Below the pieces are notes generated by a model that did no database searches, had not been told where the DNA came from, and saw only the letters and a list, made by a program, of their open reading frames with translations. Below are positions 9,812-14,520 of a stretch of DNA of 46,880 bases, piece after piece. The DNA is taken from the sequence record MN158206.1; one strand, given 5' to 3'. The stretch is from Escherichia phage BEK2. Every line of letters starts with the position of its first letter. The first letter of the stretch is position 1. Both the position numbers and the translations under genes were made by a program.

Positions 9812-10468
9812 ATGGCTCATTTATCAAACGGCACTCAGGTGTTCGTAGAGGGTTCTCGTGGCGAAGCTGTTGCGGTTACAGCAATCTCTAACGCAGCAAG
9901 CCCTGTTTTAACCGTAGCTGACAGCTCTGGTATTGAGGTTGGTAATCACCTCCTGTTTACCGCGTCTTCCTCTACACTGCTTGCTGACAAGCACGTTCGA
10001 GTTACCGCAGTTACTGGTACATCAATCACAGTTGAAGGTATCGATACTTCTAACACCACAAAATTCCCGGCGGGGTTGACTGGTGAGGTGGTTAAGATTA
10101 TTTCCTGGTTCGAGGTTCCGTGCGTTCAGGACGTTTCCACTGACGGCGGCGAGCAGCAATTCGTTAACTTCCAATGCTTGTCCGATGACCGTGAGCAGCA
10201 GATTCCGACTTATAAATCTGCCGTAACTAACACCTTTACCTTTGCTCATGAGTACACCAACCCGGTTTATCCGGTTCTGCGTAACTACGATGAGTCAGGA
10301 CAGGTTGTCGCAATTCATCTGTATGTTCCACGTGCACAGGAGATGCGTTTGCAGTCCGGCACTATCGCTTTCAACGACACGCCAACCATCGGTGTTAACG
10401 AAATCGAAACGGTGTCCATCTCGGTATCAATTCGTGGTCGACTGTCCTCTGTGGCAGCACCAGTTTAA
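9812..10468 (+). CDS. major tail protein
   Basis: 218 aa, strong RBS, followed by terminator, upstream of chaperone/tape-measure genes. Confidence 0.6.
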   Translation: MAHLSNGTQVFVEGSRGEAVAVTAISNAASPVLTVADSSGIEVGNHLLFTASSSTLLADKHVRVTAVTGTSITVEGIDTSNTTKFPAGLTGEVVKIISWFEVPCVQDVSTDGGEQQFVNFQCLSDDREQQIPTYKSAVTNTFTFAHEYTNPVYPVLRNYDESGQVVAIHLYVPRAQEMRLQSGTIAFNDTPTIGVNEIETVSISVSIRGRLSSVAAPV

Positions 10469-10475
10469 AGCACAA

Positions 10476-10497
10476 ACCCTCTTCGGAGGGTTTTTTA
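10476..10497 (+). terminator. intrinsic terminator
   Basis: ccctc-ttcg-gaggg + T6. Confidence 0.7.
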
Positions 10498-10578: not shown

Positions 10579-10827
10579 ATGAATAACGTTAAAAACATTA
10601 TCAAACTTACTGCGGTTCTGGTTGCTTTTTATGCGGTGGTTCAGATTGTTAACCCAACGGGTGAGGCTGATGCAAATAGCAAGGCAAACAAATATACCGT
10701 TGAGTTTGCCAAAGCCGAGCGAGCATGCCAGGAACTTGTAGGTGGTAAGGTTGATCAAATCATGAAGTATGGTAGTGAGATTTGCAAGGATACCGCCGCT
10801 AAGATTGCAAAAGAAAACACTAAGTAA
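10579..10827 (+). CDS. small secreted/membrane-anchored protein (cargo gene inside tail operon)
   Basis: N-terminal hydrophobic segment 'LTAVLVAFYAVVQIV' then soluble domain with 2 Cys; own promoter. Confidence 0.6.
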   Translation: MNNVKNIIKLTAVLVAFYAVVQIVNPTGEADANSKANKYTVEFAKAERACQELVGGKVDQIMKYGSEICKDTAAKIAKENTK

Positions 10828-10865: not shown

Positions 10866-11180
10866 ATGGCAAAGTTCAAACTTTCACTGGCGGCACTCCC
10901 GGACTTTAAGCTACCAGTAAAATTTAAGCTGGCTAACGACCAGGATGTAGAGGTTATTTTTACAGTCAAACACAAGAAAACATCTGAGCTTCAGGAATTG
11001 CTCAGCAAGGAAGATTTGAGCACCAAAGAACTTATTATGGCAATTACCTCTGATTGGGATTTGGAAGAGGAATACAACGAGGATAACGTTAATGAGTTCT
11101 CAGACCTGTTCCCAGCCTCAACCGTAGCGCTAACTACCGCTTATATGCAAGCACTGGCTGGTCAGCGAGTAAAAAACTAA
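10866..11180 (+). CDS. tail assembly chaperone (lambda G-like)
   Basis: 104 aa, acidic, immediately upstream of tape measure; ends at slippery site. Confidence 0.65.
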   Translation: MAKFKLSLAALPDFKLPVKFKLANDQDVEVIFTVKHKKTSELQELLSKEDLSTKELIMAITSDWDLEEEYNEDNVNEFSDLFPASTVALTTAYMQALAGQRVKN

Positions 11181-11500
11181 AACGAGCGGTGTACCTCCAG
11201 TACCAGTCAGAGCCAACTGATGCCGAACTGGAAGCTATTGGGATGCGCCGCTCTGATTACGAAGATGAAGAGCCTGAGGTTTTACACTTTGACGATAACA
11301 TGATGAAGGCGTGGGACATTTATTGTTCAATGGCTACACAATGGAGAGTCGGAGCTAACGGAGCAACTGGCCTAGATTACAACGTGCTAAATTTCCTCTT
11401 TAGAGTGTATAATGTTTCTGAAGAAGAATTGGTGCTCAGCGATTTACGCATCCTTGAAGCTAAGGCTCTTGAGATGATGGATAACCTGAGAAAAAAATAA
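10866..11500 (+). CDS. tail assembly chaperone frameshift fusion (lambda GT-like), -1 shift at A_AAA_AAC 11171-11177
   Basis: heptamer A AAA AAC directly before stop TAA; -1 frame is open to 11500 and is the frame of track ORF 11189..11500. Confidence 0.55.
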
Positions 11501-11519
11501 CCCGCTTCGGCGGGTTTTC
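11500..11519 (+). terminator. intrinsic terminator/attenuator
   Basis: aacccgc-ttcg-gcgggtttt. Confidence 0.5.
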
Positions 11520-11535
11520 TATTATGGAGGCTTAG

Positions 11536-14520
11536 ATGGCAACAAATGAATTAGCCGGAATCACGCTAGCCGTAGACGTCTCGCAGGTAGACAGGGGAAC
11601 GCAATCCCTACAGAAGTTCAGACAGGCCAACCAACAGGCTGCCTCTGGGATTAGTGAGTTCGTCAATGCTGAGCAGGTAGCAAAAACTCAGGCCAGAGAC
11701 ACGGCTCGCGCACTTGCTGAGCAGCAAGCATCACTTGCTAAGCTGCAAACGGCTATTGATCCAACTGCGGCAAAGTTCCGTAAACTCCAGGAGGCTGCTG
11801 TAGGTCTGGATAAGGCTTTCGCGGCTGGCGTAGTTCCTGATGAGGAGTTTTTCCGGTTAGGTGAGGCACTTGAAACGCAGAACGCAAAACTTGCCCGATC
11901 ACGTGCGGCGCTAACTGAGGAGGGAAGGGCGGCAGCACAGGCTGCAAAGGATAAGGCAAAAGCAAAGGCAGAGGCTGACAGATTTATCGCATCACTTGAG
12001 CGCCAGGCTCAAGCGGCAACATTGACGCGTGAGGAGTACTTAAAGTTACAGGCTGCTCAGCTTGGGGTAAGTTCTCAGGCAGCGCCTATTATTGACAGAA
12101 TCGCCGATGCATCACAGAAGGCAAACACCCAGTTAATTGCCCAGAGCAAGGCTTTTCAACGCTCTGGCTTAAGCGCAGGTCAATACAAGGCTGCAATCTC
12201 TCAATTGCCAGCGCAGATTACAGACATTGGCACATCACTTGCTGGCGGCATCCCGATCTGGCTTATTGCAATTCAGCAGGGTGGGCAAATTAAGGATGCA
12301 TTTGGTGGTATTGGCAACACCTTTAGATTCGCGCTCGCAGCCTTAAATCCATTCAATGTTGCTGTTGGTGTTTTGGGTGGGGCGCTTGTAGCTCTTGGTG
12401 TCGGTGCAGCTCAGGCTGAAAGTGAATTCAGGGCGTTAAACTCAGCTATTGCATTCTCCAACAACTCTACAATCGCATCAATCTCGCAGGTTAGAGAGTT
12501 GGTTAGCTCTGTTTCTGATGCAACAGGTGCCACCAGAGGGCTTGTGACTAGCATCGCAACAAGCCTTATTGAGCAAGGGAACCTTACGCTGACGCAGATT
12601 GACAAGATTACCAAATCAACCGCCAGATGGGCGCAGCTTACCGGAAAAGATGCAAAGGAAATTACTGGTTACTACAACCAGATTGCGAGCGACCCAATCC
12701 AGGGTTTGGTTGATTTGGATAAGCGCTTTAACTTCCTCACCAAGGGGCAGTTAACGACAATCGAAAACCTTAGGAAGACAAAGGGAGAGGTTGAGGCTGT
12801 TACCGCCGCAATTGACATTTTCAGTAAGTCCCAGGAAGCCAACCTTAACGACATAGCAGCGCAGTTAACTCCACTTGAGCTAGCCTGGAATGATTTCAAA
12901 AAGTACATCTCCGATATCTGGGATGCAATTAGTCGCAGAACAGTTGGGGCACTGAACCTGTTTGTTGACGTAATCGCCGGAACAATTGAGCAGATCAGGG
13001 TATTCATTAACCAGGGGGATGCCCTGATTGGTGAATTCGTAATTAGCGCAACTCAGGCATTGCAGAATATCCCCGGCCTTGATGGTGTCGGTGATGATGT
13101 AATCAAGAGTCAGCAGAAGATTATCGATGCCGCCAAGAAGCAAAACCTTGAGTTAGAAAAGTCTATCAAGGAGCGCGATGCCAGAATCAGGGAGGGAGAG
13201 CTTGGTTACGTTACTCGCAGAGAAAATCAGAATACCAATGAGCAGTCAGGCACGGATGAGGAGTTTGCAAAAAGGAAGAAGGCGCTTCAGGATGAACTTG
13301 ATGCGATCAAGAAAAACAGAGCCGAGGAGAAGGGTAGGGTTAAAGAGCAAAGGGATCTAACGATAGGTTATGAATCTGGCGTGCTGGCACTTCAGGCCCA
13401 ACTCAAGGCTCTTAAGGAAAACAGGGATGTCGGCGCAGTAATAAGCAATGAGAGCAATCAGTATCGTCAGGAGGTTGCTAAATTCCAGATTCTTGAGCAG
13501 AGGCAACTTGATGGCTCAATTACCAAAGAGCAAGCAAGGCTTCTCATTGAAAAGGATAAAGTTCTTGAGTTGGCTAGGCAGAAGGCTGAACTAGGTGACC
13601 AGATTGTTTTGCAGGAGCGAGCCAATAAGTTAGCTGAAGATAACCGCAAGAAGATTCTTCAGATTAACAATGAAGCAAATAACATTGATTTGGGTGCTGG
13701 CCTGTCTTCTCGTGAACAGCAGAGAGCTAAGGAGATTCAGGCTCTTCAGTCCAATCAGGTTAATGCTGGTGGTTCTGTTGATGATGTTGATTTTCAGCAA
13801 TTGCTGGAAGCAAGAAAGGAATACTACAAGCAGGAGGATAATCTTAGGTCAGACTGGCAAGCTGGCGTAACGTCAACCCTCGCTGACTTGACTGAGAAGT
13901 ACACTGATTACAACCAGATTGCTAAGGACTTGACAGTTGCGGCATTCGATGGAATTACAGACCAGATTACAAACCTTGTAACCACTGGTGAGACCAACTT
14001 CAGGGAGTTCACCGCAAACATCCTCAAAATGATTGCGAAGATTGCAACTCAGTTACTTTTGGTTAAGGCTATTGAATCTACAATCAAGAGCTTTGGTGGT
14101 GACACTGGTGCAGGTAGCGCTTTCGAGTCAATAAAGTCAGCAATTGGTTTCGCTGGCGGCGGCTACACTGGTGACGGCGGGAAGTATCAGCCAGCAGGTA
14201 CGGTGCATCGCGGGGAGTTTGTATTCACAAAAGAGGCAACTAGCCGAATTGGTGTGAAAAACCTTTACGCACTAATGAAGGGTTATGCAAACGGCGGAGC
14301 GGTTGGCGGTCCATCTGGTTATGCTAATGGCGGCTTGGTTTCTGGTGGTGCTGATGTTAATGTTAGTGGCATCACTGTTAACGTAAACTCGGGTGTAGGT
14401 AGCGATCCGGAGCAAGCTAAGGCACTGCAAAATGGCGTCAAGGCTATCGTAGCGGAAGAGATTTCTCAGTCCTTCCAGCAAGGCGGAAGAGCTTATCAGT
14501 ACCTTCGAGGATTCAACTAA
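11536..14520 (+). CDS. tail tape measure protein
   Basis: 994 aa, long coiled-coil Ala/Gln/Lys-rich regions, Gly-rich C-terminus. Confidence 0.85.
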   Translation: MATNELAGITLAVDVSQVDRGTQSLQKFRQANQQAASGISEFVNAEQVAKTQARDTARALAEQQASLAKLQTAIDPTAAKFRKLQEAAVGLDKAFAAGVVPDEEFFRLGEALETQNAKLARSRAALTEEGRAAAQAAKDKAKAKAEADRFIASLERQAQAATLTREEYLKLQAAQLGVSSQAAPIIDRIADASQKANTQLIAQSKAFQRSGLSAGQYKAAISQLPAQITDIGTSLAGGIPIWLIAIQQGGQIKDAFGGIGNTFRFALAALNPFNVAVGVLGGALVALGVGAAQAESEFRALNSAIAFSNNSTIASISQVRELVSSVSDATGATRGLVTSIATSLIEQGNLTLTQIDKITKSTARWAQLTGKDAKEITGYYNQIASDPIQGLVDLDKRFNFLTKGQLTTIENLRKTKGEVEAVTAAIDIFSKSQEANLNDIAAQLTPLELAWNDFKKYISDIWDAISRRTVGALNLFVDVIAGTIEQIRVFINQGDALIGEFVISATQALQNIPGLDGVGDDVIKSQQKIIDAAKKQNLELEKSIKERDARIREGELGYVTRRENQNTNEQSGTDEEFAKRKKALQDELDAIKKNRAEEKGRVKEQRDLTIGYESGVLALQAQLKALKENRDVGAVISNESNQYRQEVAKFQILEQRQLDGSITKEQARLLIEKDKVLELARQKAELGDQIVLQERANKLAEDNRKKILQINNEANNIDLGAGLSSREQQRAKEIQALQSNQVNAGGSVDDVDFQQLLEARKEYYKQEDNLRSDWQAGVTSTLADLTEKYTDYNQIAKDLTVAAFDGITDQITNLVTTGETNFREFTANILKMIAKIATQLLLVKAIESTIKSFGGDTGAGSAFESIKSAIGFAGGGYTGDGGKYQPAGTVHRGEFVFTKEATSRIGVKNLYALMKGYANGGAVGGPSGYANGGLVSGGADVNVSGITVNVNSGVGSDPEQAKALQNGVKAIVAEEISQSFQQGGRAYQYLRGFN

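Follow-up and report, generated by a model that had tools for sequence, protein, structure and literature searches.

A probable programmed −1 frameshift in the tail assembly chaperone genes of a T1-like Escherichia phage

The −1 frameshift which produces the G and GT chaperones of phage lambda was reportedly described by Levin, Hendrix and Casjens in 1993, and Xu, Hendrix and Duda are said to have found in 2004 that a frameshift of this type is near-universal in long-tailed phages; further work by Xu, Hendrix and Duda on the lambda G/GT chaperones reportedly appeared in 2013 and 2014. The ratio of G to GT in lambda, about 30:1, and the binding of partners have been reviewed (PMC5009743). Among T1-like phages, the frameshift was noted in the genome announcements of Stevie (PMC4319613) and U136B (PMC8104045). 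As for the slippery sequence, Sharma et al. measured A_AA.A_AA.C and G_GG.A_AA.C as motifs of low efficiency in E. coli, and insertion sequences such as IS1 use these motifs for programmed frameshifting despite their low efficiency (PMC4066793). The insAB' product of IS1, a small amount of fusion protein made on the same weak A_AAA_AAC in E. coli, is a transposase, and no stimulator has been established for it (PMC4066793), whereas a hairpin is predicted at the locus described here.

The stretch of DNA analysed, called the window in the following, comprises 46,880 nucleotides of Escherichia phage BEK2 (MN158206.1). Its region 9800–11600 matches Escherichia phage BEK3 (MN158207.1; Drexlerviridae, Braunvirinae), a T1-like siphovirus, at 100% identity, and 81 phage records have an identity of at least 80% to this region. 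As in lambda, two overlapping reading frames are flanked by the genes for tail tube and tape measure, the order of the genes and the sizes of their products correspond in type, and ribosomes that slip by −1 close to the end of G would give a G-T fusion of low abundance, here predicted from the sequence. The slip sites are different (G_GGA_AAG in lambda, A_AAA_AAC here); in addition, the present locus has its stop codon immediately next to the heptamer and a predicted strong hairpin downstream, and it belongs to other Pfam families, Phage_TAC_4 and DUF1799. Similarity to G or T of lambda was not detected at the sequence level. The differences in heptamer, stop codon, hairpin and Pfam families leave the kind of system unchanged. 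ST40 and ST39 of T1 are orthologues with about 50% identity; they possess an identical junction (GCA AAA AAC TAA, as T1 records it), the −1-frame sequence KKLKRAVYL and a terminator after T. We estimate the probability that a −1 ribosomal frameshift at 11171–11177 yields a GT fusion at about 0.93. The weak motif suits a system with a scarce long product.

The tail gene cassette and the slip site

The genes of the cassette and the signals at the junction are located on the + strand, in the order tube gene, a reading frame of 82 aa, G, T and tape measure gene. Matches to Phage_tail_3 of Pfam (E 2.5e-67) and to phrog_584, major tail protein (E 1.2e-85), identify 9812..10468 as the gene of the major tail (tube) protein; it is the upstream landmark of the G/GT cassette and, by analogy, encodes the presumed binding partner of the T domain. 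The downstream landmark is the tape measure protein gene (TMP) at 11536..14520, with matches to TMP_2 (E 2.8e-49), Tape_meas_lam_C (E 1.5e-16) and phrog_24 (E 8.9e-230); its product is presumed, again by analogy, to be the partner of G. A first-pass annotation, which was made from the nucleotide sequence alone, had placed the frameshift site directly upstream of the tape measure gene, and this is borne out by the TMP_2 match of the next gene. Other flanking genes were recognized by Pfam as encoding the tail terminator and a minor tail protein.

The standard translation product of G (10866..11180), a tail assembly chaperone of 104 aa, matched Phage_TAC_4 (PF08748) from end to end (E 9.4e-33; 113.5 bits, gathering cut-off 21.1). 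The T extension in the −1 frame extends over 11177..11500, with C11177 being read twice, and shows codon-3 periodicity; the T reading frame matched DUF1799 (PF08809) with E 4.9e-16 and 59.2 bits (gathering cut-off 26). Both halves were matched by the same PHROGs family, phrog_17368, a profile of 213 positions, of which G covers 1–107 and T covers 113–210. Since this profile spans G and T, fusion-length proteins of the family are already present in annotated phages. A word-indexed protein search with the GT fusion gave one match, a DUF1799 protein of 123 aa. For BEK3 or any T1-like phage, a protein-level report of the GT fusion was not found in the literature.

For the fold of G, a model was obtained with AF2 on an alignment of 116 sequences, which replaced a single-sequence AF2 model (pLDDT 53.6, unusable). 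Solved folds of tail assembly chaperones are those of HK97 gp13, B. subtilis YqbN and Rbstp2171 (PDB 2OB9, 3KLU and 3FGX). These three entries are listed as tail assembly chaperones (PMC9603447). Neither the fusion nor the family profile gave a significant match when searched against the sequences of the PDB; the model would lend supportive, if weak, evidence to a tail assembly chaperone fold of G.

The reading frame of 82 aa between the tube gene and G (10579–10827) has phrog_22925, to which no function is assigned, as its sole match, and its N-terminal segment is hydrophobic (KLTAVLVAFYAVVQIV). T1 does not possess a gene at the equivalent place, and for this reason the frame looks like a moron-type insertion in the tail operon of Braunvirinae. 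A terminator-like hairpin is present at 10474–10493, 3' of the tube gene.

The slippery heptamer A_AAA_AAC (AAAAAAC) occupies 11171–11177, where it comprises the last two sense codons of G, Lys and Asn. The codons of the zero frame are GTA (11169), AAA (11172), AAC (11175) and TAA (11178), that is, the heptamer is in the register X_XXY_YYZ with respect to G, and the stop codon at 11178..11180, a possible pause element, follows directly 3' of it. In the −1 frame, no stop codon interrupts the stretch between 11096 and the TAA at 11498–11500, which includes the reading frame 11189..11500. The first-pass annotation had recognized the heptamer at the stop of the 104-aa chaperone and an open −1 frame which reaches 11500 and contains this downstream frame; position, register and reading frame proved to be correct. 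Its interpretation as a G/GT-type chaperone fusion by −1 frameshifting is supported by the family matches, by the conservation of the site and by the switch of coding frame described below.

According to the proposed mechanism, most ribosomes would read G from 10866 to 11180 and end at the TAA at 11178, releasing the chaperone of 104 aa. A small fraction would slip back by one base on A_AAA_AAC, whereby tRNA-Lys would re-pair from AAA to AAA (a perfect match) and tRNA-Asn from AAC to AAA (two of three positions). Translation in the −1 frame would then proceed to 11500. The predicted GT (10866..11177 joined to 11177..11500) has 211 aa and the junction ...AGQRVKN|LKRAVYLQYQ..., and a Glu-C peptide across the junction between G and T is predicted to be FSDLFPASTVALTTAYMQALAGQRVKNLKRAVYLQYQSE. 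The adjoining stop codon and the stable hairpin 6 nt downstream would probably pause the ribosome and set the ratio of G to GT. By analogy with lambda (PMC5009743), G and the G part of GT would bind to the tape measure protein as a coat, while recruitment of the tail tube protein would be the role of the T domain; neither G nor GT would be expected to end up in the virion.

The heptamer alone is no rarer than chance, as AAAAAAC occurs 13 times in the window against an expectation of 13.1 ± 4.0, and in-register slippery heptamers account for about 0.19% of the codons of long open reading frames. What goes beyond chance is its exact position with respect to the stop codon and its conservation in homologous junctions down to about 25–30% protein identity. 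Between 6 and 17 nt upstream of the heptamer, a Shine-Dalgarno-like element of the GGAG, AGGA or GAGG type was not found (11150–11170, GCACTGGCTGGTCAGCGAGT).

Conservation of the junction and of the reading frames

Comparisons were carried out with an annotated set of 12 relatives from at least six genera plus T1, with a larger panel of 88 dereplicated homologous junctions from IMG/VR and GenBank, and with a BEK3-clade set of 12 unique sequences. Furthermore, G alone was used as query in an exhaustive search of 1.84 billion representative proteins, which returned 146 relatives with at most 50% mutual identity and a median length of 105 aa.

In all 12 annotated relatives and in T1, T is found in the −1 frame, and K(K/G/S)L(K/R)RAVYL is read straight from the slip site; the same frame relation applies to 82 of the 88 unique junctions. 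An in-register heptamer ending exactly at the stop codon is present in 69 of the 88 (AAAAAAC in 68, GGGAAAC in one); the stop codon of G is TAA in 80 and TGA in eight. When only the 82 intact junctions are considered, the stop abuts the heptamer in 69 and is situated one codon later in 13, which are of the Webervirus and Rogunavirus types. GGGAAAC is the slip site of a Ralstonia relative. The C-termini of the 146 distant homologues of G were KN in 75 and GN in 41 cases, together 79%, and none of the 146 proteins found with this query in the representative set was of fusion length. KN are the residues encoded by A_AAA_AAC, and GN would result from G_GGA_AAC if the Gly codon is GGA after a G. 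This predominance of KN or GN followed by the stop makes the slip site plus stop codon a hallmark of the whole family.

Webervirus members (the Klebsiella phages KP36 and VAC7, L010 and L004 of the panel) have the junction GCA AAA GTT TAA, and those of the Rogunavirus type (L006 and L023–L027, e.g., phiKP26) have GCA AAG GTC TAA; both are without an X_XXY_YYZ heptamer and keep only a tetramer, A_AAA or A_AAG, which a single codon separates from the stop, yet the −1-frame T with L(K/R)RAVYL is conserved. Judging from these sequences, the two clades would appear to use single-tRNA slippage or another route. L026, which belongs to the Rogunavirus-like group, has regained AAAAAAC.

The same type of event could be considered for the present locus, namely a slip of tRNA-Lys in the P-site on A_AAA before Asn is decoded, which would lead to the junction ...VKK-LKR... 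instead of ...VKN-LKR.... Such a slip would fit the retention of the tetramer only, together with a conserved −1-frame T, in Webervirus and Rogunavirus, and A_AAG and A_AAA are known as shift-prone tetramers in E. coli (PMC4066793). However, the full heptamer including the terminal AAC is kept in the 69 junctions mentioned, and KN and GN termini dominate the wider family, which points to selection on the A-site codon too. A P-site slip appears rather unlikely on these grounds; it is in any case a special form of the frameshift favoured here rather than a competing explanation.

In a gene pair of the lambda type, the coding constraint should pass from one frame to the other at the slip site. 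When the 82 intact junctions are compared, variability is highest at third codon positions of the G frame as far as 11168, but at those of the −1 frame from 11182 onward; the coding signal therefore switches exactly at the heptamer, and the pattern of variability would indicate that dual coding upstream of the heptamer is absent. In the BEK3 clade, three positions (11182, 11183 and 11185) are variable within the 11 nt from the stop to the GTG at 11189; these changes are silent in the −1 frame only (Lys AAA/AAG, Arg CGA/AGG) and are non-synonymous in the zero frame.

These data bear on the possibility that T (11189–11500) is an independent gene, translated from GTG 11189 by termination-reinitiation or from ATG 11240, with the heptamer being incidental. 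An in-frame GTG is indeed present 8 nt after the stop in the BEK3 clade, where GenBank records annotate a separate reading frame, and in some relatives the annotation starts at the Met equivalent to 11240. An independent start of T was also what would have spoken against the frameshift according to the first-pass annotation. GTG 11189 is the Val codon of the conserved KRAVYL motif; it is not maintained outside the BEK3 clade, where GTT, GTA or ATC takes its place, and constraint on the −1 frame is already apparent 5' of it, as seen from the periodicity and from the three substitutions which are silent in this frame. Many relatives do not have a start codon in the T frame for 50–220 nt; in the panel of 88 junctions, the first ATG, GTG or TTG is usually found 50–149 nt past the stop and at most 221 nt past it. 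A usable Shine-Dalgarno sequence for GTG 11189 is missing, the sole similar triplet being GAG at 11184–86, only 2 nt away, and the family-wide KN/GN-stop signature would be left unexplained. Both candidate starts are moreover sequestered in the predicted hairpin, the GUG at 11189 in its 5' arm and the AUG at 11240 in its 3' arm. We regard an independent T gene as very improbable; termination-reinitiation at GTG 11189 has some chance of being a minor route in the BEK3 clade.

The six junctions of the panel in which T is outside the −1 frame were considered as real variants, but homopolymer or assembly errors are the simplest reading. Four of them have five instead of six A residues at the slip run, one (L041) has A6 but frame breaks elsewhere in G, and one (L086) has A8. 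The A5 run (GTAAAAACTAA) occurs in five independent records, L042, L079, L083 and L087 from IMG/VR and L094, which is Escherichia phage 2725-N35 (MN840485.1). In these, the stop codon of G is removed and T is in the +1 frame relative to G; as a consequence, the annotators of 2725-N35 extended G to 117 aa. L083 and L087 are contigs with further frame breaks or a deletion. The A5 records are most likely homopolymer sequencing errors, and their recurrence exactly at the slip site deserves attention. In the A8 case, a distant relative (L086:1501–2125, IMGVR_UViG_3300025728_000347; about 35% identity; CGCGAAAAAAAACTGA), G and T form one continuous in-frame reading frame of 208 aa, which may be due to a homopolymer error or may represent a naturally fused form.

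Downstream RNA structure

An RNA hairpin of 70 nt is predicted at 11184..11253, 6 nt after the heptamer, with a minimum free energy of −31.2 kcal/mol and a basal stem of 10 bp (11184–11193 with 11244–11253). The spacer of this predicted structure is within the 5–9 nt expected for a stimulated bacterial −1 frameshift signal of the dnaX or IS3 type. A fold of 90 nt had −32.6 kcal/mol, with z −5.3 against dinucleotide shuffles and none of 200 shuffles equally stable. Within the + strand, the hairpin belongs to the top 0.07% of 84-nt windows, as only five of 6,686 were equally stable, two being the hairpin itself. At this locus of the BEK3 clade, all other predicted local folds are less stable.

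The hairpin is predicted in all 12 unique BEK3-clade sequences, and the differences between them cluster in the apical loop. Third codon positions in this clade are variable in three of 15 cases when paired, as compared to 107 of 192 elsewhere (Fisher p = 0.013). All changes at the three variable paired positions are A/G or C/U transitions. With respect to base-pair changes, the stems are nearly invariant and the clade is too uniform for covariation. In T1, in Tempevirinae and in an Acinetobacter phage, a compact hairpin of about 32 nt (GGGCGGUUU...AAACCGCC) is found 7 nt after the heptamer, in place of the 70-nt hairpin of the BEK3 clade; its covariation score was 0.126 versus 0.133 for a slid control. 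The RNA following the stop was among the top 5% most stable folds of its own locus in 48 of 61 unique junctions, and a notable structure after the stop was not present in IMM-001, phiKP26, CRES9 and CJ19. For the hairpin, matches to Rfam families were all far below the gathering scores. The odds that the hairpin at 11184–11253 stimulates frameshifting are roughly even. Since Webervirus and Rogunavirus are without the heptamer, and several relatives are without the structure, neither a tandem-slip site nor a stimulator is required throughout the family.

The BEK3 clade has lost the proximal 3' arm of the compact hairpin (Pro-Pro codons have become Glu-Pro), and the same 5' arm is predicted to pair with a distal partner 50 nt further. 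Orthologous G/GT sites of Drexlerviridae may thus have swapped their downstream stimulators while the 5' arm was kept, from the compact 32-nt type to the 70-nt type of the BEK3 clade, with none in others, some of which have even given up the heptamer; we put this forward tentatively, at somewhat less than even odds. Should the swapped stimulators be functional, they would provide a natural series in which a weak heptamer, an abutting stop and interchangeable RNA structures tune a fixed ratio of G to GT.

A change of frame at the level of RNA, i.e., stuttering of RNA polymerase on A6 with deletion of one A in part of the transcripts (A6 to A5, meant to bring T into frame with G), could draw on the homopolymeric nature of the slip site and on the five A5 records and one A8 record, by which the length of the run appears error-prone in biology or in sequencing, but it is highly unlikely, since A6 is shorter than the runs needed for efficient transcriptional slippage (typically 8–9 or more; PMC5009743), the run invariably keeps the X_XXY_YYZ register of ribosomal slip sites, with a final C before the stop, the Ralstonia GGGAAAC and the GN termini in 41 of 146 homologues suggest sites of the G_GGA_AAC type without a long homopolymer, and the predicted structure 6 nt downstream fits a ribosomal stimulator.

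End of T, annotation and single records

Between the stop of T and the start of the tape measure gene, a terminator-like GC hairpin (AACCCGCTTCGGCGGGTT) with a T-rich tail is present on the + strand at 11499..11526. It includes the final two bases of the T stop codon, and the tape measure ATG comes 10 nt later; in T1 and KP36, the corresponding position carries annotated rho-independent terminators. This element may lower the transcription of the tape measure gene in comparison with the chaperones. It is bidirectional, the reverse strand of 11499–11526 being terminator-like as well. A second in-register run on the + strand, A_AAA_AAA at 11491–11497, encodes the C-terminal Lys-Lys of T and is followed at once by the stop. 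A fusion of T to the tape measure protein by way of this run, with TMP being in the −1 frame of T, was considered and rejected, as that frame is closed by a TAG at 11533–11535 before the TMP ATG.

In the record of BEK3 (MN158207.1), both reading frames are labelled "hypothetical protein" and no ribosomal-slippage join is given; most relatives are annotated alike. The T half is without a called gene in atuna and vojen, and in other relatives T was called from arbitrary codons. The frameshift is already known for T1-like phages, and the present case is one more instance of a known mechanism; the practical outcome is therefore a correction of the annotation, to tail assembly chaperone G (104 aa) and the frameshift product GT (211 aa; join 10866..11177, 11177..11500). 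KN or GN before the stop at the C-terminus of Phage_TAC_4 proteins should be a simple rule for locating the site.

One record of the panel (L100, PP134917.1, "Pseudomonas phage PsgS01F", labelled as a phage of Pseudomonas syringae) has 89% identity to BEK3 across the region, and its genome and that of E. coli phage UALMA_PCEc3 are both 44,679 bp long. Doubt attaches to its assigned host; alternatively, the phage could be a contaminant.
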